Position numbers and translations under genes: made by a program
Notes under the pieces: model-generated
What the model saw: only the letters and a program-made list of their open reading frames with translations
Database searches by the model: none
Told to the model about the DNA's origin: nothing
Shown: positions 7,690-63,638 of the stretch, one piece after another
How positions within the stretch are numbered: position 1 is the stretch's first letter
Layout: each line of letters starts with the position of its first letter
Assembly: GCF_055900595.2 (NCBI RefSeq)
Contig: NZ_CM148325.1
Reading direction: 5' to 3' (one strand)
Length of the DNA stretch: 64,000 nucleotides

Positions 7690-8172
7690 CGGTTGCCGGG
7701 TGCAGCGTAAAACGCCTTATCCATCCTACGGTTCTGTGCTCGGGACCTGTAGGCCTGATAAGACGCGTCAGCGTCGCATCAGGCACTGAATGCCGGATGC
7801 GGTGTGAACGCCTTATCCGGCCTACGGTTCAGGGCTTGGATCTTGTAGGCCCGATAAGACGCGCCAGCGTCGCATCAGGCACTGAATGCCGGATGCGGCG
7901 TAAAACGCCTTATCCGGCCTACGGTTCTGTGCTCGGGTCTTGTAGGCCTGATAAGACGCGCCAGCGTCGCATCAGGCACTGAATGCCGGATGCGGCGTGA
8001 ACGCCTTATCCATCCTACGGTTCTGTGCTCGGGACCTGTAGGCCTGATAAGACGCGTCAGCGTCGCATCAGGCACTGAATGCCGGATGCGGCGTGAACGC
8101 CTTATCCGGCCTACGGTTCTGTGCTTGGATCTTGTAGGCCTGATAAGAGGCGTCAGCGTCGCATCAGGCAAA
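7690..8172. repeat. Tandem REP/BIME array, about 5 copies of a unit of roughly 98 bp
   Basis: Repeated gccggatgcggcgtgaacgccttatccggcctacggttctgtgctcggg...tgtaggcctgataagacgcg.cagcgtcgcatcaggcactgaat units seen directly; six-frame ORFs here are repeat artefacts. Confidence 0.8.
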
Positions 8173-12307: not shown

Positions 12308-13201
12308 ATGACGAATTTAAAAGCAGTTATTCCTGTAGCGGGTCTTGGGATGCATATGTTGCCTGCCACTAAGGCGATTCCCAAAGAGATGCTACCGATC
12401 GTCGACAAGCCAATGATTCAGTACATTGTTGACGAGATTGTGGCTGCAGGGATCAAAGAAATCCTCCTGGTAACTCACGCGTCCAAGAACGCGGTCGAAA
12501 ACCACTTCGACACCTCTTATGAATTAGAATCTCTTCTTGAGCAGCGCGTGAAGCGTCAACTGCTTGCGGAAGTGCAGTCCATCTGTCCACCGGGCGTGAC
12601 CATTATGAACGTGCGTCAGGGCGAACCTTTAGGTTTAGGCCACTCCATTTTATGTGCACGACCCGCCATTGGTGACAATCCATTTGTCGTGGTGCTGCCA
12701 GACGTTGTGATCGACGACGCCAGCGCCGACCCGCTGCGCTACAACCTTGCTGCCATGATTGCACGATTCAACGAAACGGGTCGTAGCCAGGTGCTGGCAA
12801 AACGTATGCCGGGTGACCTCTCTGAATACTCGGTCATCCAGACCAAAGAACCACTGGACCGTGAAGGTAAAGTCAGCCGCATTGTTGAATTTATCGAAAA
12901 ACCGGATCAGCCGCAGACGTTGGACTCAGACATCATGGCCGTTGGTCGCTATGTGCTTTCTGCCGATATTTGGCCGGAACTTGAATGCACGCAGCCAGGT
13001 GCATGGGGGCGTATTCAGCTGACTGATGCCATCGCTGAACTGGCGAAAAAACAGTCCGTTGATGCCATGCTGATGACAGGTGACAGCTACGACTGCGGTA
13101 AAAAAATGGGTTATATGCAGGCATTTGTGAAGTATGGACTACGCAACCTGAAAGAAGGGGCGAAGTTCCGTAAAGGGATTGAGAAGCTGTTAAGCGAATA
13201 A
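12308..13201 (+). CDS. galF: UTP-glucose-1-phosphate uridylyltransferase regulatory paralogue GalF
   Basis: ORF 12296..13201; start taken at [14 protein letters not shown]; conserved left flank of O-antigen loci. Confidence 0.92.
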
Positions 13202-13485
13202 TGAAATCTGACCGGATGTAACGGTTGATAAGAAAATTATAACGGCAGTGAAGATTCGTGGCGAAAGTAATTTGTTGCGAATATTCCTGCCGTTGTTTTA
13301 TATAAACAATCAGAATAACAACGAGTTAGCAATAGGATTTTAGTCAAAGTTTTCCAGGATTTTCCTTGTTTCCAGAGCGGATTGGTAAGACAATTAGCGT
13401 TTGAATTTTTCGAGCTAAGCGCGAGTGGGTAACGCTCGTCACATCGTAGACATGCATGCAGTGCACTGGTAGCTGTAAAGCCTGG

Positions 13486-13497
13486 GGCGGTAGCGTG
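13486..13497 (+). promoter_or_regulatory. ops element (GGCGGTAGCGTG) within a JUMPstart-like region upstream of the O-antigen operon
   Basis: Exact ggcggtagcgtg seen in the galF-distal intergenic region; the known RfaH recruitment site of polysaccharide operons. Confidence 0.65.
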
Positions 13498-13649
13498 TCT
13501 AGGGGCAGGGAAAGATTATCAGAAGTACACTTTTTGTACTAAATAATTCGCATTTTATGTTCAAAAATTGAGATATCCCTCATTACCTAAAACTGTTTTT
13601 CACAGCTTATATATGATCAAATACTCCTTGCTTAAATAAGGAGAACAAA

Positions 13650-14786
13650 ATGGAACTTAAAAAATTGATGGAACATATTTCTGTTATTCCCGATTACAGA
13701 CAAGCCTGGAAAGTGGAATATAATTTGTCGGATATTCTACTGTTGACTATTTGTGCCGTCATTTCTGGTGCAGAAGGCTGGGAAGATATAGAGGATTTTG
13801 GGGAAACACATCTCGATTTTTTGAAGCAATATGGTGATTTTGAAAATGGTATTCCTGTTCACGATACCATTGCCAGAGTTGTATCCTGTATCAGTCCTGC
13901 AAAATTTCACGAGTGCTTTATTAACTGGATGCGTGACTGCCATTCTTCAGATGATAAAGACGTCATTGCAATTGATGGAAAAACGCTCCGGCACTCTTAT
14001 GACAAGAGTCGCCGCAGGGGAGCGATTCATGTCATTAGTGCGTTCTCAACAATGCACAGTCTGGTCATCGGACAGATCAGGACGGATGAGAAATCCAATG
14101 AGATTACAGCTATCCCTGAACTTATTAACATGCTGGATATTAAAGGAAAAATCATCACAACTGATGCGATGGGTTGCCAGAAAGATATTGCAGAGAAGAT
14201 ACAAAAACAGGGAGGTGATTATTTATTCGCTGTAAAAGGAAACCAGGGGCGGCTAAATAAAGCCTTTGAGGAAAAATTTCCGCTGAAAGAATTAAATAAT
14301 CCAGAGCATGACAGTTACGCAATGAGTGAAAAGAGTCACGGCAGAGAAGAAATCCGTCTTCATATTGTTTGCGATGTCCCTGATGAACTTATTGATTTCA
14401 CGTTTGAATGGAAAGGACTGAAAAAATTATGTGTGGCAGCCTCCTTTCGGTCAATAATAGCAGAACAAAAGAAAGAGCCAGAAATGACGGTCAGATATTA
14501 TATCAGTTCTGCTGATTTAACCGCAGAGAAGTTCGCCACAGCAATCCGAAACCACTGGCACGTGGAGAATAAGCTGCACTGGCGTCTGGACGTGGTAATG
14601 AATGAAGACGACTGCAAAATAAGAAGAGGAAATGCAGCAGAATTATTTTCAGGGATACGGCACATCGCTATTAATATTTTGACGAATGATAAGGTATTCA
14701 AGGCAGGGTTAAGACGTAAGATGCGAAAAGCAGCCATGGACAGAAACTATCTGGCGTCAGTCCTTGCGGGGAGCGGGCTTTCGTAA
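13650..14786 (+). CDS. ISAs1-family transposase (Rhs H-repeat-associated protein)
   Basis: 378-aa ORF with the H-repeat/ISAs1 transposase signature as I recall it (…[10 protein letters not shown]…, …AVKGNQGRL…, …[15 protein letters not shown]…); GC lower than flanking core. Confidence 0.85.
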
Positions 14787-14864
14787 TCTTGCCCTGAATA
14801 AACAACTTATTGATTCATGTGAATAAGTTACTCGAATGATATCTGTTGTATATGGGGCACTTCA

Positions 14865-16109
14865 TTGAGCAAAACTAAACTAAATGTTCTTTACCTTGCA
14901 ATAAGTCAGGGTGCCAATTACCTACTGCCATTATTAATTTTTCCTTATCTTGTTAGAGTCATTGGTGTATCGAATTTTGGTGATCTGAGTTTTTCATTGA
15001 TAACTATACAAGTGTTGTTAATGGTTGTTGAATATGGTTTTGGATATAGTGGGACAAGAGAAATAGCACTAAATAACGATAAAAAATACCATTCTGAATT
15101 TTTTTGCGGTGTGGTGCTTGCTCGTTTTATATTAATGCTAATTGCAGCTATTATACTCATAATACTCTGTTTTTTTTATGTTTTTAACGACGTTAAGTAT
15201 TTGTTATGTGTTGGTTTTCTGTCCGTAATTGCAGGTGTTTTCAATCCAAATTGGTTTTTGCAAGGTAAGGAAATGATGAGTGTGATGGCTGTGCTGTCAC
15301 TATTTTCACGAGGCATAGCAGTCGTTGCAGTTTATCTAATTATAAAACCCGCAACGCCGATGTACATCAGTGCCTTATTATTGAGCATGCCATATATTTT
15401 GTATTCATTCTGTGGCGTTGCCTACTTACTTATTATCAAGGAGATTTTTTTATGTAGGCCACCGATAAAGAAAATTCAAGTAATTTTAAAAAATGGATTT
15501 CATTTTTTTTGTTCAACACTTGCGACTAGTGCATACACAATGTTGACCCCTCTTGTATTGGGTGGCGTATCTGGAAAGTTTGATGTAGGCATCTTTAACT
15601 CAGCTAACATGATCAAACAAGGTTTGGCTGGACTTGCATCACCATTAGTCCAAGCTTTTTATCCAAGAATTAACATTTTGCAAAGAGAGAATCCATATAT
15701 TGCAAACTTAAAATCTAGAATGATTCTTAAATACTTGCTTGTTTTTTACATGGCTTTAGCAATGCCATTTTTACTTTTTGCCAACCAATTATCATTATTA
15801 ATATTCGGCATGAAAGGTGAAGTAATTGCAGGTGCAATGCAATTAATGACATTGCTTCCTATATTCATAGGTTTTAATACAGTTGTCGGGTTACTTGTAT
15901 TAGTACCTAATGGGATGCAAAAACAGTATTTCAAATCTATTTTCCTAGGAACTATTACTTGTTTAAGCATAGTTTATCCAGCATGTAAATATTATGGAGC
16001 AACGGGTGCGATTGTGAGTCTTATTGTAGCTGAAATTTTCGTTGGCATGGGAATGCTTAAACAATTCATTAAAGTAAATAAAACTGTATGTAGGCCTCAT
16101 AAATTATGA
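14865..16109 (+). CDS. wzx: O-antigen flippase Wzx
   Basis: 414-aa, about 12-TM protein with a typical Wzx N-terminus; first gene of a low-GC cluster. Confidence 0.8.
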   Translation: MSKTKLNVLYLAISQGANYLLPLLIFPYLVRVIGVSNFGDLSFSLITIQVLLMVVEYGFGYSGTREIALNNDKKYHSEFFCGVVLARFILMLIAAIILIILCFFYVFNDVKYLLCVGFLSVIAGVFNPNWFLQGKEMMSVMAVLSLFSRGIAVVAVYLIIKPATPMYISALLLSMPYILYSFCGVAYLLIIKEIFLCRPPIKKIQVILKNGFHFFCSTLATSAYTMLTPLVLGGVSGKFDVGIFNSANMIKQGLAGLASPLVQAFYPRINILQRENPYIANLKSRMILKYLLVFYMALAMPFLLFANQLSLLIFGMKGEVIAGAMQLMTLLPIFIGFNTVVGLLVLVPNGMQKQYFKSIFLGTITCLSIVYPACKYYGATGAIVSLIVAEIFVGMGMLKQFIKVNKTVCRPHKL

Positions 16110-17092
16110 ATATCTCGGTAATAATATCTGTTTGGAAACGCCCAGTTCAATTAGAATTGATTCTCTCTGAGCTCGATTCTCAGGCTAAAGACAATAGTCT
16201 ACACCTAGAAGTAATTGTTTCCGATAGTCATAGTGGTAAAGAAATTGATGATGTAGTTGCTGATAATATTCATAAAAAGAAAAATATTAATATTATCCAT
16301 CAACATACTAAAAATATACTCTCCGCTAAGCGCAATTTCGGAGCATCCCTAGCCCATGGGGATTATTTAATATTTCTTGATGATGATTGTATACCCGCAA
16401 GTGGATATATATCATCGTTGCTGAACTATTTAAAAAAAATGAATAGTAAAAGCGTATTATGTGGGGAAGTTAGATTCGAAAATGAACTCATTGAGACCAG
16501 CAATTACTATCGCTACAGGAACTCTTTACACCCTAAGTTTAGTGATAGTCATGATATCTCTATGAATGCCTGGACTTTTGTCGCAATGAATTGTGTTCTT
16601 GATAGAAAGGCATTTTCATCAGGTATAGTTTCATATAATGAAAATTTTATTGGTTATGGTTGTGAAGATCATGAGTTTGGGTGGCAACTTGAAAAAAATG
16701 ACTTCAAAATTATTTTTGCTGATTTTAAAATATTACATCACGAATACAGTGGCGATATAGAAGGATATACAAAAAAAATTCGTGCTACAGCACGTGATGG
16801 TATGAATGTATTAAGCAAAGTAAGACCTGAAATGTTTTCTACTAATAAAAAATTATTCCTGGTTGAGAAAATATTTAGTAAACACAAAACGTTTAGTAAA
16901 ATATGCCAATCAATATTTTTCAATAAATTTATTTTTAAAAAAATAATACAATTTTTAAAAAAAACAGATGCAAATAAAAAACTCTATTTCCCAATTCTTT
17001 ACAGATATGTGTTGATTTCGGCATATATACATGGTATTGGAGAGCGTGGCACCTCAAAAACAGATGAATTGCTTAAGAACTGGTATATATAG
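16106..17092 (+). CDS. Glycosyltransferase family 2 (O-antigen)
   Basis: 328-aa ORF with a GT2-type acidic motif (YLIFLDDDCIP); start overlaps the wzx stop. Confidence 0.8.
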   Translation: MNISVIISVWKRPVQLELILSELDSQAKDNSLHLEVIVSDSHSGKEIDDVVADNIHKKKNINIIHQHTKNILSAKRNFGASLAHGDYLIFLDDDCIPASGYISSLLNYLKKMNSKSVLCGEVRFENELIETSNYYRYRNSLHPKFSDSHDISMNAWTFVAMNCVLDRKAFSSGIVSYNENFIGYGCEDHEFGWQLEKNDFKIIFADFKILHHEYSGDIEGYTKKIRATARDGMNVLSKVRPEMFSTNKKLFLVEKIFSKHKTFSKICQSIFFNKFIFKKIIQFLKKTDANKKLYFPILYRYVLISAYIHGIGERGTSKTDELLKNWYI

Positions 17093-17141
17093 ATGATGCT
17101 ATCTTCATTTATTAAGACATTTGTATGGAAGGTAAAAGACA

Positions 17142-18320
17142 ATGAAGTATAATGCATTGATGGCTTTTTTATTATTTTTTGTTGTTTTTTTTAGATTGTC
17201 GCTGATAATACCTTTCTTATATTTGGCATTTATTCCTGCATTTTTTGGTATTATGTATTTAGTGCGTAATTTTATGATTACTATGGGCAATGGATTGGTA
17301 TCTATAGATCGTAAAAATTTGTTGCTGTTATCTATATTCATAATTATTTTTTTATTTTGTATGGTTTTCGATTCGTTTCAAAAAAGCCAATCTTTTCAAA
17401 GCTATTTCACCGTTAGATTATTTATGTTGTTTTTATTTTCATTTGTTCCTGCGTATTATTTAGTAAATAGATTCATAAAGGGTGACTTGAAATTAATGGA
17501 GCGAATATTAGTGTATTCTCTCTGGGTTCAAATAGTTATTTTTTTTGGTATGTATATAAGTCCAGAGTTAAAAAGATTGTTATATACTTTCTTTGGTATG
17601 TCTGACTCAGTTAATCTTTGGGAACAAAATGCTAAAGTAAGAGGATTTGGGTTGTCGGGTGAAATAAATTTCATGACACCATTTTTGATGATCTATATGT
17701 CATTTTTTATGATGAAAAGGCGTTATGCTTTAATTACTTTAATTTGTCTTACTCAAATCGTAAATTCTAACATGGCTGTGATTGCAGCCATTATTGGTAT
17801 CGGTTGCTCTAGACTTAATATTAATATAAAAATTGCAACAGTATTGGTTTTGGGAGTTTTAGTTTATAGCTTAGGAGCGGTGTTCTTCCCTCGATTTTAT
17901 GATGAGTTCGTTTCTGGAGATGGCACAAGAACTCTGGATATCTTATTACAGCAACATGTGTTTGTTGTAGGTAATTTAGATTTTTTTAATATTATATTTG
18001 GATTACAGCAAAACATATCTTCATCAATCCCCGATATTAAACAAAGTTCGGATATGGGCTGGGTTATACTGTTTAATTACGGTGGGTTAACATTTATTAC
18101 ACTCTTTTTATTTTTAATCTTTACTATTTCTATTGCGACATTTGGAATGACATATCAAGCAATTATATGGATGTTAATTGGGATAATTTTCAATACCAAA
18201 GGTTTAGTTTTAGGATCTAACGGCTATTTCTTTCTATCTTTTATATATATGTTTTTGAATAGAGTAACACTTAGTGGACAGAGTTCAATTACTAATAAGT
18301 TAGGCCAAGTAAGTAAATAG
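17142..18320 (+). CDS. wzy: O-antigen polymerase Wzy (putative)
   Basis: 392-aa very hydrophobic multi-TM protein, very AT-rich, between a GT and the sugar-pathway genes. Confidence 0.7.
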   Translation: MKYNALMAFLLFFVVFFRLSLIIPFLYLAFIPAFFGIMYLVRNFMITMGNGLVSIDRKNLLLLSIFIIIFLFCMVFDSFQKSQSFQSYFTVRLFMLFLFSFVPAYYLVNRFIKGDLKLMERILVYSLWVQIVIFFGMYISPELKRLLYTFFGMSDSVNLWEQNAKVRGFGLSGEINFMTPFLMIYMSFFMMKRRYALITLICLTQIVNSNMAVIAAIIGIGCSRLNINIKIATVLVLGVLVYSLGAVFFPRFYDEFVSGDGTRTLDILLQQHVFVVGNLDFFNIIFGLQQNISSSIPDIKQSSDMGWVILFNYGGLTFITLFLFLIFTISIATFGMTYQAIIWMLIGIIFNTKGLVLGSNGYFFLSFIYMFLNRVTLSGQSSITNKLGQVSK

Positions 18321-18361
18321 CTTCCAGAGTATATTTGTCAATAATTTGAGGTTCGGTTATT

Positions 18362-19396
18362 ATGTTTTCATCTAAAACACTGTTAATTACTGGTGGTACT
18401 GGCTCTTTCGGGAATGCTGTATTAAATAGATTTCTTGATACAGATATTGCAGAAATCCGTATATTTAGTCGTGATGAAAAAAAACAAGATGATATGCGGA
18501 AAAAATACAATAATCAAAAATTAAAGTTCTATATTGGTGATGTCAGAGATTACCGTAGTATTTTGAATGCGACTCGCGGTGTTGATTTTATATATCATGC
18601 AGCGGCACTTAAGCAAGTTCCATCATGTGAATTTCATCCTATGGAAGCCGTTAAAACTAATATCCTTGGTACGGAAAATGTTCTTGAAGCAGCTATAGCG
18701 AATGAAGTGAAGAGGGTTGTATGCCTAAGTACTGATAAAGCTGTATACCCGATTAACGCAATGGGTATTTCAAAAGCTATGATGGAAAAGGTCATGGTCG
18801 CGAAATCCCGTAATGTTGATCGCAATAAAACAGTAATATGTGGTACCCGTTATGGGAATGTTATGGCATCTCGCGGTTCAGTTATTCCATTATTTGTTGA
18901 TCTTATTAGAGCGGGCAAGCCACTCACAATAACTGATCCTAATATGACCCGCTTTATGATGACTCTTGAGGATGCGGTAGATTTAGTTCTTTATGCGTTT
19001 GAACATGGTAATAATGGTGATATCTTTGTGCAAAAAGCACCTGCAGCAACTATTGACACATTAGCTATTGCTTTAAAGGAATTACTAAATGTTCCAGACC
19101 ATCCGGTAAATGTCATTGGAACGCGTCATGGCGAGAAATTATATGAAGCTCTACTTAGTCGTGAGGAAATGATCGCTGCTATAGATATGGGTGATTATTA
19201 CCGTGTCCCGCCAGATCTTCGTGACCTTAATTATGGCAAATATGTTGAGCAAGGTGATAGCCGAATATCTGAAATAGAAGATTATAACTCTCATAATACT
19301 CAACGGTTAGATGTTGAAGGCATGAAAGAGCTCTTGCTAAAATTAGCCTTTATTCGAGCAATTCGTGCTGGTGAAAAATATAATCTGGATTCATGA
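18362..19396 (+). CDS. fnlA: UDP-GlcNAc 4,6-dehydratase/5-epimerase (FnlA/CapE/WbjB-like)
   Basis: 344-aa SDR-type ORF (LITGGTGSFG, extended SDR); first of a three-gene L-FucNAc-type pathway. Confidence 0.85.
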   Translation: MFSSKTLLITGGTGSFGNAVLNRFLDTDIAEIRIFSRDEKKQDDMRKKYNNQKLKFYIGDVRDYRSILNATRGVDFIYHAAALKQVPSCEFHPMEAVKTNILGTENVLEAAIANEVKRVVCLSTDKAVYPINAMGISKAMMEKVMVAKSRNVDRNKTVICGTRYGNVMASRGSVIPLFVDLIRAGKPLTITDPNMTRFMMTLEDAVDLVLYAFEHGNNGDIFVQKAPAATIDTLAIALKELLNVPDHPVNVIGTRHGEKLYEALLSREEMIAAIDMGDYYRVPPDLRDLNYGKYVEQGDSRISEIEDYNSHNTQRLDVEGMKELLLKLAFIRAIRAGEKYNLDS

Positions 19397-19397
19397 T

Positions 19398-20501
19398 ATG
19401 AAAATATTAGTTACTGGTGCAAATGGTTTTATTGGTCGTAATTTATGTTTGAGGCTTGAGGAACTTGGTTATAAAGATCTTATTAGAATCGATCGAGAAT
19501 CAACGAAGCAAGATCTTGAACAAGGCTTACAGGATGCCGATTTTATTTATCACTTAGCTGGTATCAATAGACCTAAGACTGATGATGAGTTTATTTCTGG
19601 AAACAGTGATTTAACAAAGCATATAGTTGAGTATCTCCTTTCTATTGGTAAGAATACACCAATTATGCTAAGTTCTTCGATACAAGCTGAACTTAATAAT
19701 GCTTATGGGGTTAGCAAAGCTGTAGCTGAAAGCTATGTCCAAAAATATGCTGCTGCTAGTGGTTCTTCGTATTATATTTTCAGATATCCAAACGTTTTTG
19801 GTAAATGGTGTAAGCCAAACTATAATTCTTTTATAGCAACTTTTTGCTACAATATTTCCAATGATATTGAGATTACTATCAATGATGCATCAGCGCCAGT
19901 CAAACTGGTCTATATTGATGATGTTTGTACTGATGCTATAGCTCTTCTCTCTGGGACGGTTGAAAGCGGATATAAAGTTGTTGCACCAATTTATTCAACA
20001 ACAGTTGGTGAAGTTGCAGAATTAATTTATAGCTTCAAAAATAGCCGTTCCACCCTGATCACAGAGGCTGTCGGGGCGGGATTTACCCGTGCATTGTATT
20101 CTACATGGCTGAGTTATTTACCAGCAGAGAAGTTTGCGTACAAGGTACCTTTTTATGGGGATGCCCGCGGAGTCTTTTGTGAGATGTTGAAAACGCCTTC
20201 AGCGGGGCAGTTTTCATTTTTTACTGCTCACCCTGGTATTACGCGTGGCGGACATTACCATCACAGTAAAAATGAGAAGTTTTTGGTCATTCGAGGTCAG
20301 GCATGCTTTAAATTTGAACATGTGATTACCGGTGAGCGATATGAACTGCAAGTTTCATCGGGTGAGTTTAAGATTGTTGAAACAGTTCCTGGTTGGACAC
20401 ATGACATTACAAATATTGGAACTGATGAATTAATAGTCATGCTCTGGGCAAATGAAATTTTCAACCGTGATGAGCCCGATACTATTGCGAGACCTCTATA
20501 A
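19398..20501 (+). CDS. fnlB: Bifunctional reductase/epimerase (FnlB/CapF-like)
   Basis: ORF 19365..20501; start taken at MKILVTGANGFIGRNL; N-terminal SDR plus C-terminal cupin-like region, as in CapF. Confidence 0.8.
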   Translation: MKILVTGANGFIGRNLCLRLEELGYKDLIRIDRESTKQDLEQGLQDADFIYHLAGINRPKTDDEFISGNSDLTKHIVEYLLSIGKNTPIMLSSSIQAELNNAYGVSKAVAESYVQKYAAASGSSYYIFRYPNVFGKWCKPNYNSFIATFCYNISNDIEITINDASAPVKLVYIDDVCTDAIALLSGTVESGYKVVAPIYSTTVGEVAELIYSFKNSRSTLITEAVGAGFTRALYSTWLSYLPAEKFAYKVPFYGDARGVFCEMLKTPSAGQFSFFTAHPGITRGGHYHHSKNEKFLVIRGQACFKFEHVITGERYELQVSSGEFKIVETVPGWTHDITNIGTDELIVMLWANEIFNRDEPDTIARPL

Positions 20502-21631
20502 TGAAAAAATTAAAAGTTATGTCTGTTGTTGGAACCCGTCCTGAGATTATCCGTTTGTCGAGGGTTCTTGCTAAGTTTGATGAATACTGCGAGCATATTA
20601 TTGTCCATACTGGTCAAAATTATGATTACGAATTAAATGAAGTGTTCTTCAATGACTTGGGTGTTCGAAAACCTGATTATTTTTTAAATGCAGCGGGTAA
20701 AAATGCGGCGGAAACCATTGGCCAGGTTATTATTAAGGTAGATGAAGTATTAGAAATCGAAAAACCTGAAGCAATACTGGTATTGGGCGATACGAATTCA
20801 TGTATTTCTGCCATTCCGGCCAAACGCCGTAAAGTGCCTATATTTCATATGGAAGCAGGTAACCGGTGTTTCGATCAACGCGTGCCTGAAGAAACCAACA
20901 GACGTATTGTTGACCATACGGCTGATATCAATATGACCTACAGTGATATTGCTCGTGAATATCTCTTGGCTGAAGGTATCCCAGCTGATCGGATCATAAA
21001 AACTGGTAGCCCTATGTTTGAGGTTCTTTCATATTATATGCCCCAAATTGATGGTTCAGATGTGCTATCGCGTTTGAATCTACAGTCTGGTGAGTTTTTT
21101 GTAGTAAGTGCGCATCGTGAAGAGAATGTTGATTCGCCAAAACAGCTCGTAAAGCTTGCGAACATTCTAAATACTGTTGCTGAAAAATATAATCTTCCAG
21201 TTATTGTCTCCACACACCCAAGGACACGTAACCGAATCCGTGAGCAAGGAATTGAATTTCATTCAAATATAAATCTACTAAAACCATTGGGTTTCCATGA
21301 TTATAACCACTTGCAGAAGAACTCACGAGCTGTGCTTTCAGATAGCGGTACTATCACTGAAGAGTCATCCATCATGAATTTCCCAGCGGTAAACATCCGG
21401 GAAGCGCATGAGCGTCCGGAAGGCTTTGAGGAAGCATCCGTCATGATGGTGGGGTTAGAGTGTGAACGCGTATTACAAGCGCTGGATATTCTGGCAACAC
21501 AACCGAGAGGTGAAGTCCGTCTTTTACGTCAGGTTAGTGATTACAGCATGCCAAATGTGTCGGATAAAGTTGTCAGAATTGTTCACTCTTACACAGATTA
21601 TGTTAAGAGAGTCGTCTGGAAAGAATATTGA
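20501..21631 (+). CDS. fnlC: UDP-N-acetylglucosamine 2-epimerase, non-hydrolysing (FnlC/CapG-like)
   Basis: 376-aa ORF with the 2-epimerase N-terminus (MSVVGTRPEIIRLS). Confidence 0.85.
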   Translation: MKKLKVMSVVGTRPEIIRLSRVLAKFDEYCEHIIVHTGQNYDYELNEVFFNDLGVRKPDYFLNAAGKNAAETIGQVIIKVDEVLEIEKPEAILVLGDTNSCISAIPAKRRKVPIFHMEAGNRCFDQRVPEETNRRIVDHTADINMTYSDIAREYLLAEGIPADRIIKTGSPMFEVLSYYMPQIDGSDVLSRLNLQSGEFFVVSAHREENVDSPKQLVKLANILNTVAEKYNLPVIVSTHPRTRNRIREQGIEFHSNINLLKPLGFHDYNHLQKNSRAVLSDSGTITEESSIMNFPAVNIREAHERPEGFEEASVMMVGLECERVLQALDILATQPRGEVRLLRQVSDYSMPNVSDKVVRIVHSYTDYVKRVVWKEY

Positions 21632-22842
21632 TGAAACTTGCTTTAATCATAGATGATTACCTGCCCAACAGTACTCGTGTTGGTGCAAAAATGTTTCATG
21701 AACTTGCTCAAGAATTTATCCAGCGTGGGCACGATGTTACGGTAATTACTCCTGGTACGGGCATGCAAGAAGAGATTTCTTTTGATACCTTTCAGGGGGT
21801 AAAAACATGGCGTTTTAAAAGCGGGCCGCTCAAGGATGTAAGTAAAATTCAGCGAGCGATCAATGAAACGCTTTTGTCCTATCGGGCGTGGAAAGCCATC
21901 AAAAAATGGGTAAAAAAAGAGACCTTTGAGGGGGTGATTTATTATTCACCTTCCATATTCTGGGGGCATTTAGTTAAAAAAATTAAAGCTCGTTGCCAAT
22001 GTCCTGCTTATCTTATTTTAAGAGATATGTTTCCACAATGGGTAATTGATGCAGGAATGCTTAATGCTGGTTCCCCAATAGAACGCTACTTTCGTCTTTT
22101 TGAAAAAATATCTTATCGTCAGGCAAATTTTATTGGACTTATGTCTGATAAGAATCTTGATGTTTTTCGGAAAGATAATAAAGGCTATCCGTGCGAAGTT
22201 TTGCGTAATTGGGCCTCCCTAACACCAACGATCATACCCAAGGATTATATACCACTACGTAAGCGACTTGGCCTAGAGGATAAAACCATTTTCTTCTATG
22301 GTGGAAACATAGGTCATGCACAGGACATGACAAACTTGATGCGACTTGTGAGAAACATGGCAGCATATCCTCAAGCTCATTTCCTATTTATTGGCCAGGG
22401 GGATGAAGTTGAATTAATTAATTCATTAGCCTCTGAGTGGGCATTGACGAATTTCACCTATTTGCCCTCGGTTAATCAGGATGAATTTAAGTTCATTTTG
22501 TCGGAAATGGATATCGGCTTGTTTTCTCTTTCCGCTAGACACTCTTCCCATAATTTTCCTGGTAAGTTATTAGGCTATATGGTTCAGTCGCTACCTATTT
22601 TAGGTAGCGTAAATGCCGGAAATGATTTGCTCGACATTGTCAATCAAAATAATGCCGGATTAATCCATGTCAATGGTGAGGATGATAAATTATGTCAATC
22701 TGCGCTATTAATGTTGCATGATATTGATGTGCGCCGGCAACTTGGTTCGGGGGCGAATATATTGTTGAAAGAACAATTCTCCGTTGAGTCTGCGGCACAG
22801 ACGATAGAAATGAGGTTGGAGGCATGCAATGCGATTAATTGA
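21628..22842 (+). CDS. wbuB: Glycosyltransferase family 4 (WbuB-like, putative L-FucNAc transferase)
   Basis: 404-aa GT4-type ORF directly after fnlC; the gene name is by positional analogy and is uncertain. Confidence 0.65.
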   Translation: MMKLALIIDDYLPNSTRVGAKMFHELAQEFIQRGHDVTVITPGTGMQEEISFDTFQGVKTWRFKSGPLKDVSKIQRAINETLLSYRAWKAIKKWVKKETFEGVIYYSPSIFWGHLVKKIKARCQCPAYLILRDMFPQWVIDAGMLNAGSPIERYFRLFEKISYRQANFIGLMSDKNLDVFRKDNKGYPCEVLRNWASLTPTIIPKDYIPLRKRLGLEDKTIFFYGGNIGHAQDMTNLMRLVRNMAAYPQAHFLFIGQGDEVELINSLASEWALTNFTYLPSVNQDEFKFILSEMDIGLFSLSARHSSHNFPGKLLGYMVQSLPILGSVNAGNDLLDIVNQNNAGLIHVNGEDDKLCQSALLMLHDIDVRRQLGSGANILLKEQFSVESAAQTIEMRLEACNAIN

Positions 22843-23227
22843 TAATGACCAACTCGACGAATTATATGATCAAGCCGGGCAATCGGAACGTTTACGTTCC
22901 CACCTTATGATGCACGGCTCGCATCAAGAAAAGGTACAGCGTTTACTTATTGCATTAGTAAAGGGCAGCTATGTTGAACCGCATTATCACGAACTTCCTC
23001 ATCAGTGGGAAATGTTCATTGTTATGGAGGGGCAACTTAAGGTTTGTTTATATGGTAGAAATGGTGAGGTTATAAAGCAATTTATAGCAGGAGATAATAC
23101 TGGAATAAGCATTGTGGAGTTTTCTCCGGGCGATATACACAGTGTCGAATGCCTATCTCCGCGTGCTCTTATGGTGGAAGTTAAGGAGGGGCCATTTGAC
23201 CCTTCTTTTGCAAAATCGTTCGTGTGA
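22829..23227 (+). CDS. Small cupin-like protein (WbuC-like), unknown function
   Basis: 132-aa ORF overlapping the GT4 stop; last low-GC gene before gnd. Confidence 0.55.
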   Translation: MRLIDNDQLDELYDQAGQSERLRSHLMMHGSHQEKVQRLLIALVKGSYVEPHYHELPHQWEMFIVMEGQLKVCLYGRNGEVIKQFIAGDNTGISIVEFSPGDIHSVECLSPRALMVEVKEGPFDPSFAKSFV

Positions 23228-23343
23228 TGCTTGTCTAAAGTACATCTTCTGCTATCTACCCAAGCTAAACCTGAGTTAACATCCATACCATATTTCAAGC
23301 TGCGCATATCTTGCGCGGTGACCACCCCTGACAGGAGTAAACA

Positions 23344-24750
23344 ATGTCAAAGCAACAGATCGGCGTCGTCGGTATGGCAGTGATGGGGCGCAATCTTGCG
23401 CTTAACATCGAAAGCCGTGGTTATACCGTCTCTATTTTCAACCGTTCCCGTGAAAAGACGGAAGAAGTGATTGCCGAAAATCCAGGCAAAAAACTGGTTC
23501 CTTACTATACGGTGAAAGAGTTCGTTGAATCTCTGGAAACGCCTCGTCGCATCCTGTTAATGGTTAAAGCAGGTGCAGGCACGGATGCTGCTATTGATTC
23601 CCTCAAACCATATCTCGATAAAGGTGACATCATCATTGATGGTGGTAACACCTTCTTCCAGGACACTATTCGTCGTAACCGTGAGCTTTCTGCAGAAGGC
23701 TTTAACTTCATCGGTACCGGTGTTTCCGGCGGTGAAGAGGGGGCGCTGAAAGGGCCTTCCATTATGCCTGGTGGGCAGAAAGAAGCCTATGAACTGGTTG
23801 CTCCGATCCTGACCAAAATCGCCGCCGTTGCTGAAGATGGCGAACCGTGCGTTACCTATATTGGTGCCGATGGCGCGGGTCACTATGTGAAGATGGTTCA
23901 CAACGGTATTGAATACGGTGATATGCAACTGATTGCTGAAGCCTATTCTCTGCTTAAAGGTGGCCTGAATCTTTCCAACGAAGAACTGGCGCAGACGTTT
24001 ACCGAGTGGAATAACGGTGAACTGAGCAGCTACCTGATCGACATCACCAAAGACATCTTCACTAAAAAAGATGAAGACGGTAACTACCTGGTTGATGTGA
24101 TCCTGGATGAAGCGGCTAACAAAGGTACCGGTAAATGGACCAGCCAGAGCGCGCTTGATCTCGGCGAACCGCTGTCGCTGATTACCGAGTCTGTGTTTGC
24201 ACGATACATCTCTTCTCTGAAAGAGCAGCGTGTTGCCGCATCTAAAGTTCTTTCTGGTCCGCAAGCGCAGCCTGCTGGCGACAAAGGTGAATTCATCGAA
24301 AAAGTTCGCCGTGCGCTGTATCTGGGTAAAATCGTTTCTTACGCTCAGGGCTTCTCTCAGCTACGCGCTGCGTCTGAAGAGTACAACTGGGATCTGAACT
24401 ACGGTGAAATCGCGAAGATTTTCCGTGCTGGCTGCATCATCCGTGCGCAGTTCCTGCAGAAAATCACCGATGCTTATGCCGAAAATCCGCAGATCGCTAA
24501 CCTGTTGCTGGCTCCTTACTTCAAGCAAATTGCCGATGACTACCAGCAGGCGCTGCGCGATGTCGTCGCTTACGCAGTACAGAACGGTATCCCGGTGCCG
24601 ACCTTCGCCGCTGCTGTTGCCTATTACGACAGCTACCGCGCCGCTGTTCTGCCTGCGAACCTGATCCAGGCACAGCGTGACTATTTCGGTGCGCATACTT
24701 ATAAGCGCATTGATAAAGAAGGTGTGTTCCATACTGAATGGCTGGATTAA
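23344..24750 (+). CDS. gnd: 6-phosphogluconate dehydrogenase, decarboxylating
   Basis: 468-aa ORF; N-terminal Rossmann motif [15 protein letters not shown]; conserved right flank of O-antigen loci. Confidence 0.96.
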
Positions 24751-24989: not shown

Positions 24990-26165
<1,176 letters not shown>

Positions 26166-26310: not shown

Positions 26311-27288
26311 ATGAGAGTAGAAAATAATAATGTTTCTGGGCAAAACCATGACCCGGAACAGATTGATTTGATTGATTTACTAGTGCAGTTGTGGCGTGGC
26401 AAGATGACAATCATCATTTCCGTCATTGTGGCTATTGCCCTGGCTATTGGATATTTGGCAGTAGCGAAGGAGAAATGGACGTCAACAGCAATTATCACTC
26501 AGCCCGACGTGGGGCAAATTGCTGGCTATAACAATGCCATGAATGTTATCTATGGTCAGGCTGCGCCGAAAGTATCGGATTTACAGGAAACGTTGATTGG
26601 TCGCTTCAGTTCTGCCTTCTCTGCATTAGCAGAAACGCTGGATAATCAGGAAGAGCCAGAAAAGCTTACCATCGAACCTTCTGTTAAGAACCAGCAATTA
26701 CCATTGACTGTTTCTTATGTTGGGCAAACTGCAGAGGGCGCACAAATGAAGTTGGCCCAATACATTCAGCAAGTTGACGATAAAGTGAATCAAGAGCTAG
26801 AAAAGGATCTCAAGGACAACATTGCTCTGGGACGGAAAAACTTGCAGGACTCTTTAAGAACGCAGGAAGTGGTTGCGCAGGAGCAGAAAGATCTGCGTAT
26901 CCGTCAGATTCAGGAAGCGTTGCAGTATGCGAATCAGGCGCAGGTGACAAAGCCGCAGATTCAGCAGACACAGGACGTAACCCAAGATACTATGTTCCTT
27001 TTGGGGAGCGAAGCGCTGGAGTCGATGATTAAGCACGAGGCGACTCGTCCGTTGGTGTTCTCATCAAACTACTATCAGACTCGTCAAAACCTGCTGGATA
27101 TCGAAAGCTTAAAAGTTGATGATCTTGATATTCATGCTTACCGCTATGTGATGAAACCGACGTTACCTATTCGTCGCGATAGCCCGAAAAAGGCAATTAC
27201 CTTGATTCTGGCGGTGCTGCTGGGCGGCATGGTTGGCGCGGGGATTGTGTTGGGGCGTAATGCTCTGCGTAATTACAACGCGAAGTAA
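26311..27288 (+). CDS. wzzB: O-antigen chain-length determinant Wzz
   Basis: ORF 26275..27288; start taken at MRVENNNVSG; two TM segments flanking a coiled periplasmic region. Confidence 0.9.
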   Translation: MRVENNNVSGQNHDPEQIDLIDLLVQLWRGKMTIIISVIVAIALAIGYLAVAKEKWTSTAIITQPDVGQIAGYNNAMNVIYGQAAPKVSDLQETLIGRFSSAFSALAETLDNQEEPEKLTIEPSVKNQQLPLTVSYVGQTAEGAQMKLAQYIQQVDDKVNQELEKDLKDNIALGRKNLQDSLRTQEVVAQEQKDLRIRQIQEALQYANQAQVTKPQIQQTQDVTQDTMFLLGSEALESMIKHEATRPLVFSSNYYQTRQNLLDIESLKVDDLDIHAYRYVMKPTLPIRRDSPKKAITLILAVLLGGMVGAGIVLGRNALRNYNAK

Positions 27289-34614: not shown

Positions 34615-34835
34615 AAAAGTCTCTGTGAATGTTTATTCAACTGATGTCTTTTAACCTAAACCACTTTCACGTTAGAAAGCAAGGGCTTTTTTATATATTT
34701 TATGGCGATGGATTTGTTTAATGAATGAGCGGGGAAAGGAGGGGCCTGGAGTGACTATGTTAGAAAAGTAATCGTGAAAATATGTCTTTAAAATCCTCAA
34801 GAACATTGTGTTCTGTAACTAAAGTGGGCTTTGTT

Positions 34836-34932
34836 CCTGCCGGATGCGGCGTGAATGCCTTATCAGGTCTACAAATGTTGCCTAAATTCAATATATTGAT
34901 GTTTTGTAGGACTGATAAGCGGAGCGCATCAG
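34836..34932. repeat. REP/BIME palindromic elements between the his leader and yeeZ
   Basis: gccggatgcggcgtgaatgccttatcagg and cctgatgcgctccgcttatcag type motifs in inverted orientation. Confidence 0.6.
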
Positions 34933-35038
34933 GCAATGGTATATTTGCTAACAGTTTCGATTTCATTCATAGAATGAATTGTCAGTTTTGATACGCTAGC
35001 GTAGCCTTATAGATCTAAGGTGTATCAGGAGATAACGG

Positions 35039-46685: not shown

Positions 46686-47054
46686 TTAATTTTTCATTTC
46701 GGGCGTCGGATAAACAGCCAGATAAACGTAACCACAACTGCTGAGGGTATCGGCTTTGCAGGTCAGCCCTTTTGCATACAGCGTGACGGTATGCTGATGG
46801 CGGGGATTCAGTTCACCGCTGGTGAGCATGAGTTCCAGTTGTTTCATCAGCAGCGGAAAGGCCTGGTCCAGGTGGTACGCATCTGCATCGCTGAACAGGC
46901 CTCTGATACCGGCGCGGTCGGCAAGGTAATGCAACCGGTTACCCTCCTGCACCAGACGTGCCCCGAAACAGGGCGTCACGGTGCAGGGCAGCCCCCACCA
47001 GGGGCGGTCGTGATTGTCGTCGGGAAGTGTTGTCCCGGGGAGTGTGTCTGACAC
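46686..47054 (-). CDS. cbeA: CbeA (YeeU) antitoxin of the CbtA/CbeA system
   Basis: 122-aa ORF MSDTLPGTTLPDDNHDRPWWGLPCTVTPCFGARLVQEG...; apparently intact. Confidence 0.88.
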   Translation of the reverse strand: MSDTLPGTTLPDDNHDRPWWGLPCTVTPCFGARLVQEGNRLHYLADRAGIRGLFSDADAYHLDQAFPLLMKQLELMLTSGELNPRHQHTVTLYAKGLTCKADTLSSCGYVYLAVYPTPEMKN

Positions 47055-47411: not shown

Positions 47412-47888
47412 TTAAAGCAGACCATGTTCGGCAAAGGAGAAAACCTGGTTGCCACCGACTATCAGATGGTCCGGCACCCGGATATCCACCAGGCCCAGTG
47501 CCTGTACCAGACGTTCCGTGATAAGGCGGTCTGCCTTACTGGGTGTGACTTCACCGGAGGGGTGATTGTGTGCCAGCACCACGGCAGCGGCATTGTGGTA
47601 CAGGGCGCGTTTAATCACTTCCCGGGGATGGACTTCCGTGCGGTTGATGGTGCCGGTAAAGAGGGTTTCACCGGCAATCAGTTGATTCTGGTTATTCAGA
47701 TACAGCACCCGGAATTCTTCACGCTCCAGTCCCGCCATGTTCAGAATCAGCCATTCCCGTGCTGCACGGGTGGAGGTGAAGGCCACGCCGGGTTCATGAA
47801 GATGGCGGTCCAGGGTTTTCAGGGCCCGTTGAATGAGGCTGCGCTCGCCGGGCGTCATCTCTCCGGGCAGAAAGGAAAGTTGTTGCAT
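47412..47888 (-). CDS. yeeS: RadC-like JAB-domain protein YeeS
   Basis: ORF 47412..47903; JAMM-like motif HNHPSG; start position uncertain. Confidence 0.82.
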   Translation of the reverse strand: MQQLSFLPGEMTPGERSLIQRALKTLDRHLHEPGVAFTSTRAAREWLILNMAGLEREEFRVLYLNNQNQLIAGETLFTGTINRTEVHPREVIKRALYHNAAAVVLAHNHPSGEVTPSKADRLITERLVQALGLVDIRVPDHLIVGGNQVFSFAEHGLL

Positions 47889-47903
47889 TGTGCTTCTCTC
47901 CAT

Positions 47904-49932: not shown

Positions 49933-50421
49933 TTAGTTAACCGCAGCTACGTAGTTTTTCACCAGATACGCGAATTCATGCACGCCAATTTCACCGAACC
50001 AAACCAGGTAGGCCGGGTCATCTAAACCAAAGTAACGGTAGCCAACAACTTCATGGGTTTTTGGGTTATAGAGTGTTACGATAAAGTCCCAGCCGCAGGT
50101 ATTGGCTTTGCAACCGTCGCCCTGGAACCAGACTGTACCGTTAATGTTTACTGGCGTGATACCTCCACCAGGGCCATCCATATAGCCGCCTTTACCGAAC
50201 ATGCCGCTCAGTCCGACCGGTTTTAATGCTTTGTCGATAGCGGCTTTGTAGGTAGCGTCACCTTCGTACAACTCGTACGTTGATGGACACGCTCCAGGTT
50301 GTTCAGCCCAGGCTTCCGGGTTACAACTAAGAGCTTGTTTTACGGTAGCCGCTTCTGCGTTAAAGTTAAAGCCCGTGAACAGAACCGCCAGAAATAACAT
50401 AAGGGTATGTAAACGTTTCAT
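49933..50421 (-). CDS. Secreted Cys-rich protein, unknown function (C-terminal part of ORF 49933..50724)
   Basis: Internal Met followed by a signal peptide (MKRLHTLMLFLAVLFTGFNFNAEA) with an SD-like ggaag upstream; the upstream in-frame 101 codons encode another signal-like segment. Confidence 0.5.
   Translation of the reverse strand: MKRLHTLMLFLAVLFTGFNFNAEAATVKQALSCNPEAWAEQPGACPSTYELYEGDATYKAAIDKALKPVGLSGMFGKGGYMDGPGGGITPVNINGTVWFQGDGCKANTCGWDFIVTLYNPKTHEVVGYRYFGLDDPAYLVWFGEIGVHEFAYLVKNYVAAVN

Positions 50422-61680: not shown

Positions 61681-63638
<1,958 letters not shown>

Follow-up and report, generated by a model that had tools for sequence, protein, structure and literature searches.

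Between galF and gnd, the window analysed here (the whole stretch of 64,000 nucleotides) carries an AT-rich cluster of polysaccharide genes, which raises the question of which O-antigen the cluster specifies and from where its genes were acquired. Comparison with sequenced genomes indicates, at a probability of about 95%, that this region is the Wzx/Wzy-dependent O-antigen biosynthesis locus of Escherichia coli serogroup O15. A preliminary description had held that the serogroup could not be assigned from the sequence; the assignment was nevertheless obtained, through the 'O15 family' wzx and wzy genes of RefSeq genomes.

The cluster consists of eight co-oriented open reading frames (ORFs) running from galF to gnd (Table 1), none of which has an internal stop, and it is intact in the window. 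The same eight ORFs had been listed in the preliminary description, and their positions and families were confirmed, but an insertion sequence (IS) with a ninth ORF just outside the start of the cluster had gone unnoticed. The earlier view that the genes are more AT-rich than their flanks was borne out: the overall GC content is 0.361, as compared with a mean of 0.517 (sd 0.037) for 53 one-kb windows outside the cluster (Mann-Whitney p = 3e-6), no outside one-kb window is as low in GC as the highest inside one, and GC3 is 0.25-0.37 in the cluster genes versus 0.53-0.55 for galF and gnd. Two modules make up this mosaic cluster: an O15-specific wzx-GT2-wzy module (GC 0.31; 0.313 as calculated) and an fnlABC-wbuB-wbuC module (GC 0.40; 0.396 as calculated). 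As described previously, genes for dTDP-rhamnose are missing, since ORF inspection, Pfam and NCBIfam profiles and the PGAP annotation of a colinear genome all revealed no rmlBDAC genes between galF and gnd. The proposed Wzx/Wzy type was likewise supported by the PF01943 match of Wzx, the polytopic Wzy, the absence of ABC-transporter genes from the cluster and the presence of wzzB downstream.

Table 1. Features of the O-antigen region in window coordinates, with genome PK8276 (PGAP) as the colinear annotated reference
Feature	Position	Strand	Description	Evidence
galF	12308..13201	+	conserved upstream flank; GC 0.509	TIGR01105 equivalog, 685.7 bits vs cut-off 659.2; PK8276 PGAP coordinates
ops element of JUMPstart	13486..13496	+	GGCGGTAGCGT, RfaH loading site	sole match in window, position, conservation
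ISEc1-like IS	13506..14796	+	ISAs1 family ('H-repeat'), 1291 bp	between ops and wzx, co-oriented with operon
wzx	14865..16109	+	O15 O-unit flippase, 414 aa, TTG start	PF01943 Polysacc_synt, E = 6.9e-33
GT2	16106..17092	+	GT2-family glycosyltransferase, 328 aa	PF00535, 2.5e-19; weak Glyco_transf_7C match, 3e-4
wzy	17142..18320	+	O15 O-antigen polymerase, 392 aa	labelled 'O15 family O-antigen polymerase' by PGAP
fnlA	18362..19396	+	UDP-GlcNAc 4,6-dehydratase/5-epimerase, first step to UDP-L-FucNAc	TIGR04130 equivalog, 757.6 bits vs cut-off 730, full length
fnlB (wbjC)	19398..20501	+	UDP-2-acetamido-2,6-dideoxy-beta-L-arabino-hexul-4-ose reductase	NF047837 (FnlB/WbjC) equivalog, 551.7 bits vs cut-off 500
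fnlC	20501..21631	+	non-hydrolysing UDP-HexNAc 2-epimerase, last step to UDP-L-FucNAc	PF02350, 1.7e-93; TIGR00236 wecB equivalog, 220.8 bits vs cut-off 210.15
wbuB-type GT4	21631..22842	+	403 aa; predicted alpha-1,3 L-FucNAc transferase onto GlcNAc-PP-undecaprenol	PF00534 and PF13439
wbuC	22829..23227	+	small cupin-fold protein	TIGR04366 cupin_WbuC, 143 bits vs cut-off 42; DUF6016
gnd	23344..24750	+	conserved downstream flank; GC 0.505	PGAP of colinear genomes
ugd	24999-26165		3' of gnd	PGAP of colinear genomes
wzzB	26311-27288		chain-length regulator, 3' of ugd	PGAP of colinear genomes

The assignment to O15 rests on the distribution of the locus among 5426 complete E. coli genomes (RefSeq), 99 of which carry it, with 98.7-100% identity over the 10.1-kb galF-gnd interval in the best 40 of these 99. 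In the carrier genomes, wzx and wzy bear the PGAP/RefSeq labels 'O15 family' flippase and polymerase, the region of the window being 99.4-100% identical to the locus so labelled, and the carriers include strains named O15:H12, O15:H18 and 'O15_8X'; we take the names O15:H12 and O15:H18 to reflect serotyping. The wzx-GT2-wzy segment is present in exactly those 99 genomes, at 99% identity or more and in a single copy per genome. Compared with the O15 cluster of the reference genomes, the window has the same gene order, an IS upstream of wzx in both, and no difference of substance. Its allele belongs to an O15 lineage of ~100% identity with a single complete IS, while the allele of the ST69/O15:H18 type is 99.4% identical to the window and, in strain MLI114, is accompanied by an extra 5'-truncated ISAs1 copy. 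The O15 O-antigen gene cluster was reportedly published by Beutin et al. in 2005, in J Clin Microbiol 43:703. It is included in all-serogroup surveys (PMC4379981, PMC4732683), and its identification here is correct but ordinary, without novelty.

Upstream of wzx, the ops element is the sole match within the window, which by itself carries no statistical significance, as 0.38 matches would be expected by chance; its sequence is also conserved upstream of the O118/O151 genes and in the Citrobacter-like locus described below, and homology to other serogroups stops at ~13497, directly past ops. The IS that follows is bounded by terminal inverted repeats (13506-13518 on the left, 14784-14796 on the right), and alignments with other genomic ISEc1 copies end exactly at 13506 and 14796. 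Its intact transposase ORF (13650-14786, 378 aa) matches the ISAs1 model NF033564 (415.9 bits) and the Pfam domains DDE_Tnp_1 and DDE_Tnp_1_assoc.

The first gene of the O15-specific module is named 'O15 family O-antigen flippase' by PGAP at identical coordinates, and its product has at least nine hydrophobic segments. The GT2 shows no transmembrane segment, and its homologues co-occur with those of Wzy in the Citrobacter-like locus (80% identity) and in S. enterica IIIb O59 (54%). Wzy matched no profile in Pfam or NCBIfam, even at E <= 10; profile matches are usually absent for this class of proteins. The wzy gene has the lowest GC content in the cluster (0.293), and its product has at least nine hydrophobic segments with two long loops (141-199 and 250-315). 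Homologues of Wzy share 82% identity in the Citrobacter-like locus and 52-53% in a S. enterica strain of serovar 59:z10:-, and a Buttiauxella izardii UniRef entry named Wzy reaches 48%. Annotation, topology and elimination together point to a probable polymerase role.

The L-FucNAc-type pathway proposed previously found support, as the three fnl enzymes pass curated NCBIfam equivalog cut-offs and have solved relatives. FnlA matches FnlA of A. baumannii (PDB 4j2o, E = 1.7e-190) and CapE of the S. aureus L-FucNAc pathway (1.9e-150), and FnlB matches Cap5F of the same S. aureus pathway over its full length (PDB 2zkl, E = 4.1e-101). The mechanical ORF of fnlB starts with GTG at 19365 and the PGAP gene with ATG at 19398; for the GT4 gene, the mechanical ORF begins with TTG at 21628, and 21631 was adopted. 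At the amino-acid level, the GT4 is 99% identical to O118/O151 WbuB and 72% to O26 WbuB, and FnlC is 99.7% and 90% identical to the respective copies. A review assigns HG5, the homology group of WbuB, to the linkage L-FucpNAc-(alpha1->3)-D-GlcpNAc (PMC7685785). For WbuC, the structure search returned no solved relative and the literature no function, and its gene, which always comes after wbuB, adjoins it also in the O26, O118/O151, Citrobacter-like and Salmonella O59 loci.

Judged by sequence, the closest relatives of the fnlABC-wbuB-wbuC module are those of O118/O151, followed by O145, with O26 much further away. Beside gnd, O118/O151 carries this module at 98.5% DNA and 96-99.7% protein identity, and O145 carries it at 94.6% DNA identity. 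By contrast, the wzx and wzy of O118/O151 are unrelated to those of O15 (Wzx 27% identical), and its amidotransferase and hisH/hisF-like genes, located directly upstream of the fnl module, as well as its LicD-family protein and cytidylyltransferase, are all missing from O15. The O-antigens of O118/O151 and O145 contain L-FucNAm, and the lack of amidotransferase genes in O15 fits L-FucNAc rather than L-FucNAm. The resemblance to O26 suggested earlier is real in architecture: the O26 order, rfbBDAC-wzx-wzy-GT2-fnlABC-GT4-wbuC, includes the five-gene 3' module in the same order, preceded by wzx, wzy and one GT2, although O15 lacks rfbBDAC. In sequence, however, the resemblance is distant, with 22% identity for Wzx, no detectable similarity for Wzy and GT2, and 69-78% DNA and 71-90% protein identity in the fnl module. 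The O26 unit has the same design, X-L-FucNAc-alpha1,3-GlcNAc, and the O26 GT2 is presumably a rhamnosyltransferase.

In the proposed pathway, FnlA, FnlB and FnlC would convert UDP-GlcNAc to UDP-L-FucNAc; their families are clear, and their chemistry is taken from characterised homologues. WecA, encoded elsewhere in the genome, would start the unit as GlcNAc-PP-undecaprenol, such initiation being established for E. coli clusters without their own initiating transferase. The WbuB-type GT4 would then add alpha-1,3-L-FucNAc, as its published homology-group assignment suggests, and the GT2 would add the third sugar, which, from the reported O15 structure, would be D-Gal, linked beta-1,3 to L-FucNAc and drawn from housekeeping UDP-Gal. 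The presence of two glycosyltransferases in the cluster, together with WecA, fits a three-sugar unit. The trisaccharide-lipid would be flipped across the inner membrane by Wzx and polymerised by Wzy, presumably through the beta-GlcNAc-(1->2)-Gal bond of the reported structure; WzzB would set the chain length, and WaaL would ligate the chain to lipid A-core. The preliminary description had anticipated GlcNAc, L-FucNAc or a related L-QuiNAc/L-RhaNAc, and one GT2-added sugar, in agreement with the O15 polysaccharide, a trisaccharide of GlcNAc, L-FucNAc and beta-1,3-D-Gal, whose structure was reportedly described by Perepelov in 2011.

An O-unit with L-QuiNAc would arise if the fnl-like genes encoded a Qnl-type reductase and epimerase making UDP-L-QuiNAc or UDP-L-RhaNAc, and several features leave room for this: FnlA is common to the L-FucNAc and L-QuiNAc/L-RhaNAc pathways, the name of the NCBIfam model for the reductase refers to the substrate and not to the product stereochemistry, and the C4 stereochemistry of FnlB, which decides between L-FucNAc and L-QuiNAc, is not fixed by sequence alone. 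We regard such a unit as very unlikely, because the reported O15 structure contains L-FucNAc, FnlB exceeds the WbjC/Cap5F cut-off and aligns with Cap5F throughout, and those E. coli clusters in which the second gene carries the annotation 'dTDP-4-dehydrorhamnose reductase family', and which we guess to be of the Qnl type, share only about 70% identity across about 57% of the query. Within the WbuB homology group, some members do transfer L-QuiNAc, but the WbuB of O118, whose fnl module is nearly identical to that of O15, is listed as an L-FucNAm transferase, a fucosamine configuration (PMC7685785).

Another alternative concerns the 1.3-kb IS that parts JUMPstart/ops from the first biosynthetic gene. 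If this element were polar, the locus would be silent and the strains rough or O-non-typeable; inactivating lesions do occur in other O15 genomes, including an fnlA frameshift (M160133), IS1 or IS5 in fnlA, and a truncated wzx (PKF4). Silence nonetheless seems very improbable. The IS-wzx junction is found in 98 of the 99 O15 genomes and in both allele lineages, and since these genomes include the strains named O15:H12 and O15:H18, the IS most likely does not abolish O-antigen expression. Furthermore, the IS points in the same direction as the operon, no terminator-like site was found on its plus strand, and eight intact genes are not expected after prolonged silence. Transcription probably begins upstream of JUMPstart/ops and reads through the IS to wzx, probably aided by RfaH antitermination. 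Display mainly as a group 4 capsule, instead of an LPS-linked O-antigen, is the least probable alternative: HexNAc-initiated O-units can, as is generally known, leave by this route if gfc/etp are active, and the window offers no evidence on this point, but wzzB lies just downstream, the serological definition of O15 is that of an LPS O-antigen, and a capsule would be a further destination for this polymer, not another identity of the locus.

The horizontal acquisition proposed earlier was upheld by the low GC content and by related clusters in other genera. A Citrobacter-like genome (Logan SRR18178367) has these eight genes, in unchanged order, in its own galF-gnd interval, at 83-94% DNA and 80-96% protein identity to O15, whereas its flanking genes are only 73-80% identical to those of the window, so its host is another genus. 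This locus lacks the IS and has, after JUMPstart, an 82-aa remnant, which from its Pfam hits looks like rmlB, and ~0.8 kb of non-coding DNA. A protein sharing a 90%-identity cluster with its GT2 is named C. portucalensis, and the locus is probably of the Citrobacter O35 type. All eight homologues are also present, at an equally low GC content, in Salmonella enterica subsp. diarizonae serovar 59:z10:- (CP030026), but with the modules swapped (fnlABC-wbuB-wbuC, then wzx-GT2-wzy) and far more diverged: 88% identity for FnlA, 76% for FnlC, 64% for WbuB, 63% for WbuC, about 58% for FnlB, 54% for GT2, 52% for Wzy and about 46% for Wzx. Frameshifts split wzx, fnlB and gnd in this assembly, possibly as assembly errors.

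The presence of the eight homologues in both genomes is in keeping with a single O-polysaccharide being reportedly common to E. coli O15, S. arizonae O59 and Citrobacter O35, a relationship on which Kocharova 1996 (by its title) and Perepelov 2011 are said to bear. The whole eight-gene set has moved between Escherichia, Citrobacter and Salmonella, its colinear or rearranged occurrence in the Citrobacter-like genome and Salmonella IIIb 59 being direct evidence of intergeneric transfer; in E. coli it specifies a serotype, O15, that is included in the ExPEC9V/10V vaccines.

Comparison with complete genomes assigns the eight-gene cluster between galF and gnd to E. coli serogroup O15. When the region 13200-23340 was used as a megablast query against 5426 complete E. 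coli genomes, 99 aligned over at least 80% of its length, the best 40 of the 99 at 98.7-100% identity. The matching genomes are annotated with an "O15 family O-antigen flippase" and an "O15 family O-antigen polymerase", and strains named O15:H12, O15:H18, and O15_8X are among them. The wzx-GT2-wzy segment is present in the same 99 genomes, in one copy each and at 99.3-100% identity, and is absent from the other 5327; the window thus carries the O15-specific wzx and wzy alleles on which molecular O-typing is based. Two O15 alleles are visible, a ~100% type represented by the window and a 99.4% type found in ST69/O15:H18, ATCC 8739, and other strains. The preliminary description had held that the serogroup could not be assigned from the sequence alone, and database comparison supplies the assignment; neither of the findings that it named as grounds for abandoning its own reading, a wzx/wzy match to a serogroup whose O unit lacks a 2-acetamido-6-deoxy-L-hexose or a different pathway for the fnl-like genes, was encountered. 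The O15 cluster was reportedly published by Beutin in 2005, and is already known, with its genes published and, reportedly, its polysaccharide structure as well. It is also included in both all-serogroup surveys (PMC4379981, PMC4732683).

The cluster consists of eight co-oriented plus-strand ORFs spanning 14865-23227. They adjoin closely or share a few bases at their ends, and no internal stop interrupts them. It lies between galF and gnd with the JUMPstart/ops sequence upstream; ugd, wzzB, and the his operon are found beyond gnd, and the colanic-acid cluster on the upstream side. The RefSeq (PGAP) coordinates in colinear genomes are the same for the cluster genes, except for the starts of fnlB and the GT4 gene, which PGAP places at ATG 19398 and ATG 21631 and the mechanical ORF list at upstream GTG and TTG codons. 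The GC content of the cluster is 0.361 (0.313 in wzx-GT2-wzy and 0.396 in the fnl-wbu module), compared with a mean of 0.517 (sd 0.037) in 53 one-kb windows outside it, with no overlap with the range inside (p = 3e-6, Mann-Whitney test); GC3 is 0.25-0.37 inside the cluster versus 0.53-0.55 in galF and gnd. The AT-richness of the cluster is far beyond chance. Neither ORF analysis nor profile searches revealed rml genes in the window's galF-gnd cluster, and both the AT-rich cluster of eight genes and the lack of dTDP-rhamnose genes noted in the preliminary description are confirmed.

Features of the O15 O-antigen locus and its flanks, with window positions and profile matches
Feature	Position	Strand	Profile match or remark
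ops element GGCGGTAGCGT	13486-13496		
galF (flank)	12308-13201		
wzx	14865-16109	+	PF01943, E = 6.9e-33
GT2	16106-17092	+	PF00535
wzy	17142-18320	+	Membrane protein without profile match; putative polymerase
fnlA	18362-19396	+	TIGR04130, 757.6 bits vs cut-off 730
fnlB/wbjC reductase	19398-20501	+	NF047837, 551.7 vs 500
fnlC 2-epimerase	20501-21631	+	TIGR00236, 220.8 vs 210.15; PF02350 at 1.7e-93
GT4	21631-22842	+	PF00534, PF13439
wbuC cupin	22829-23227	+	TIGR04366, 143 vs 42
gnd (flank)	23344-24750		
wzzB	26311-27288		

Individual O15 genomes carry inactivating lesions, the copy in the window being intact. Strain M160133 (L001:8163-9196, NZ_CP022164), otherwise 100% identical, has a 1-nt frameshift in fnlA; an IS1 or IS5 lies within fnlA in single O15 genomes, with related hits H92 (THO-008) and H136 (ECO_2_R); and wzx of PKF4 (H70) is without its first 774 nt. 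Such lesions suggest that the O antigen may have been lost recurrently.

The gene content corresponds to the Wzx/Wzy pathway. Wzx belongs to the MOP/PST family by its PF01943 match and has at least nine hydrophobic segments; every ORF of the galF-gnd interval could be assigned a place and none is wzm or wzt, and wzzB is located nearby. The presumed polymerase gave no match to Pfam or NCBIfam profiles even at E <= 10, and absence of a profile match is normal for the hyper-variable Wzy family. In a crude hydropathy scan the protein has at least nine hydrophobic segments, and two of its loops are long (59 and 66 residues); homologues exist elsewhere, one of which carries the name Wzy in UniRef. 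The reading of this ORF as wzy is suggested by the PGAP naming, the UniRef homologue, the topology, and the fact that every other membrane protein of the cluster has an assignment. Pfam and NCBIfam profiles detect no initiating transferase in the cluster, a lack that in E. coli implies initiation by WecA, with GlcNAc as the reducing-end sugar; wecA is found in the ECA locus, outside the window.

Judged from alignments, the O15 cluster has a mosaic make-up. Its fnlABC-wbuB-wbuC module matches that of O118/O151 at 98.5% identity in DNA and 96-99.7% in proteins, and the fnl module of O145 at 94.6% in DNA, whereas that of O26 shares only 69-78% DNA and 71-90% protein identity. Between 18362-23227 of the window and the O118/O151 locus (L002:8990-13855) the identity per gene is 97.0-99.4%, and only 95% in the adjoining gnd, which suggests that the fnl-wbu module may have been exchanged between serogroups relatively recently, with a breakpoint near wbuC/gnd. 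The resemblance to O26-type clusters proposed earlier holds for the architecture and for the 3' module, since both serogroups have the five genes fnlABC-wbuB-wbuC in equal order adjoining gnd, but O26 is not the closest relative. The O26 strain 11368 has the order rfbBDAC-wzx-wzy-GT2-fnlABC-GT4-wbuC, with rml genes at the 5' end that O15 lacks; its Wzx is 22% identical to that of O15, its Wzy and GT2 have no match, and these proteins are essentially unrelated. An O26-type identity of the cluster was rejected on these grounds.

The L-FucNAc-type pathway of the preliminary description is upheld by three enzymes that score above curated equivalog thresholds and by their solved relatives. FnlA (4,6-dehydratase/5-epimerase) passes TIGR04130 and matches A. 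baumannii FnlA (4j2o, E = 1.7e-190), the C4 reductase of the FnlB/WbjC/Cap5F type passes NF047837 and matches Cap5F over its full length (2zkl, E = 4.1e-101), and FnlC, a non-hydrolysing C2 epimerase, matches PF02350 (1.7e-93) and exceeds the TIGR00236 cut-off. CapE/Cap8E is also among the best solved relatives of the nucleotide-sugar enzymes, and FnlA, CapE/Cap8E, and Cap5F are enzymes of the UDP-L-FucNAc route. An L-galacto product (FucNAc) rather than an L-gluco one (QuiNAc) is indicated indirectly, by the near-identity of the O118/O151 module and by the reported O15 chemistry. Two observations make a pathway to L-QuiNAc or L-RhaNAc, which the preliminary description had left as a choice, unlikely: the reductase matches the Cap5F/WbjC equivalog, and the module is nearly identical to a fucosamine-type one. 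In O118/O151, fnlA is immediately preceded by a gene for an N-acetyl-sugar amidotransferase and by hisH/hisF-like genes, and their absence from O15 fits L-FucNAc and not L-FucNAm, which was rejected as the product. The GT4 is 99% identical to WbuB of O118/O151 and 72% to WbuB of O26, and the WbuB homology group is associated with the L-FucpNAc-(alpha1->3)-D-GlcpNAc linkage (PMC7685785). GT2 is then the sole remaining glycosyltransferase, available for one more sugar, and the unit would be a trisaccharide, in agreement with the three sugars predicted earlier. The open-text literature searched contained no statement on the O15 repeat-unit structure; Perepelov et al. are said to have reported in 2011 the repeat ->2)-beta-D-Galp-(1->3)-alpha-L-FucpNAc-(1->3)-beta-D-GlcpNAc-(1->. 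If this repeat is right, GT2 would be a beta-1,3-galactosyltransferase, which suits an inverting GT2 using UDP-alpha-D-Gal, and Wzy would form the beta-GlcNAc-(1->2)-Gal bond.

The earlier account of the locus listed its eight genes correctly but missed an insertion sequence upstream of wzx. An ISEc1-type element (ISAs1-family, "H-repeat") of 1291 bp occupies 13506-14796, between ops and wzx. Inverted repeats form its two termini (13506-13518 and 14784-14796), and its transposase gene, intact and coding for 378 aa, has the orientation of the cluster; other genomic ISEc1 copies align exactly to the ends 13506/14796. The element starts 9 nt past ops, at the point beyond which the upstream regions of other serogroups are no longer similar. 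Of the 99 O15 genomes, 98 have the IS-wzx junction and the remaining one has a truncated wzx. MLI114 (L009:3055-5288), which has the 99.4% allele of the ST69 O15:H18 type, carries a 5'-truncated ISEc1 copy with a second, complete one upstream of it. The flanks of the IS show no target-site duplication (…GTCTAGGGG-IS-AATAAACAAC…), so that a plain recent insertion is not demonstrated, and no terminator-like site was detected on the plus strand inside it. Because of the near-universal junction, the lack of a visible duplication, and the lack of such a site, the IS is, on this genomic evidence, an ancestral and tolerated part of the O15 locus, and transcription from the JUMPstart region would presumably pass through it into wzx. 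Silencing of the locus through polarity of the IS is unlikely, since strains that bear the O15 name have the junction as a fixed feature and every cluster gene in the window is intact.

Counterparts of the cluster occur in two other genera. A Citrobacter-like genome (locus L005) has the eight O15-type genes in equal order at 83-94% DNA identity, whereas identity to the window drops to 73-80% in wcaM, galF, ugd, and wzz; the 90%-identity cluster of its GT2 contains a protein named C. portucalensis. L005 lacks the IS and has in its place, after JUMPstart, an 82-aa rmlB-like remnant (a Pfam-based reading; L005:6302-7725), followed by ~0.8 kb of non-coding DNA before wzx; the fragment hints at a possible ancestor with rml genes. 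The locus of S. enterica subsp. diarizonae 59:z10:- (L008) encodes a homologue of each of the eight genes; its two modules have exchanged places relative to O15, and the identities are 52% for Wzy, 54% for GT2, ~46% for Wzx, and 88% for FnlA. In L008:1801-11674 (CP030026), wzx, fnlB, and gnd are each in two pieces, which could be true pseudogenes or assembly indel errors. The O15-type genes in these two genomes are direct evidence of horizontal transfer, strengthening the acquisition proposed earlier from base composition. They also fit the O-polysaccharides, which are reported to be identical in E. coli O15, in "S. arizonae" O59, and in Citrobacter O35. Kocharova et al. (1996), by their title, treat Citrobacter O35 as antigenically related to Salmonella.

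WbuC, a cupin of 132 aa encoded invariably behind wbuB in clusters for L-FucNAc and L-FucNAm, is the sole part of the cluster with no assigned function. Structure searches returned no solved relative, the best matches being insignificant cupin hits to oxalate decarboxylase, and the literature searched yielded no function, the name mainly marking the gene beside mcr-9 and blaCTX-M. That ISEc1, lying just past the ops site at which RfaH loads, is a working part of the operon rather than a passive scar and WbuC has a real enzymatic role in L-FucNAc glycans is a long shot; a working ISEc1 could supply or modulate wzx transcription, or act as a recombination handle for assembly or movement of the cluster.

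Several other features of the window were observed. In the colanic-acid cluster, the stretch 7694-8170 between wzxC and wcaK gave blastn hits to a colinear genome that are offset by ~97 bp, indicating a candidate short tandem-repeat array that is probably REP/BIME-like. Between hisL and yeeZ, 34746-34961 comprises 216 bp, compared with 658 bp containing yefM-yoeB in PK8276, so that the window appears to lack this toxin-antitoxin pair. A stretch with a CbeA antitoxin (46686-47054), RadC (47412-47903), and a DUF932 protein (48465-49286) is judged to be a CP4-44-like island remnant. Within it, four co-oriented genes at 49933-55117 (minus strand) encode a dynamin-like GTPase of 798 aa (CrfC/YjdA-like; its 556 bits fall short of the 1146 cut-off), a YjcZ-like protein, a patatin-like phospholipase, and a 263-aa protein of no named family; PADLOC gave weak hits only, and the block could be an uncharacterised defence-like module. 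Towards the far end lie an IS66-family and an IS21-family transposase, at 56160-57731 (minus) and within 61771-63572 (plus), the second range also taking in ORF 62790-63572 beside the IS21-family gene.

Clinically, O15 is relevant as an ExPEC serogroup: it includes the ST69 O15:H18 lineage, and two bioconjugate vaccines, ExPEC9V and ExPEC10V, contain it as one of their serotypes (PMC11813929), so that identifying the locus helps in typing the strain. Biologically the locus brings no novelty, since the cluster and its genes are already published, as reportedly is its polysaccharide structure. Added to the preliminary description are the assignment to serogroup O15, the insertion sequence upstream of wzx, the relatives to which the fnl module is in fact closest, and the equivalents of the cluster outside Escherichia. 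The near-identical fnl module common to O15 and O118/O151, the gene set found in three genera, and the fixed IS illustrate known principles of O-antigen evolution and overturn none.
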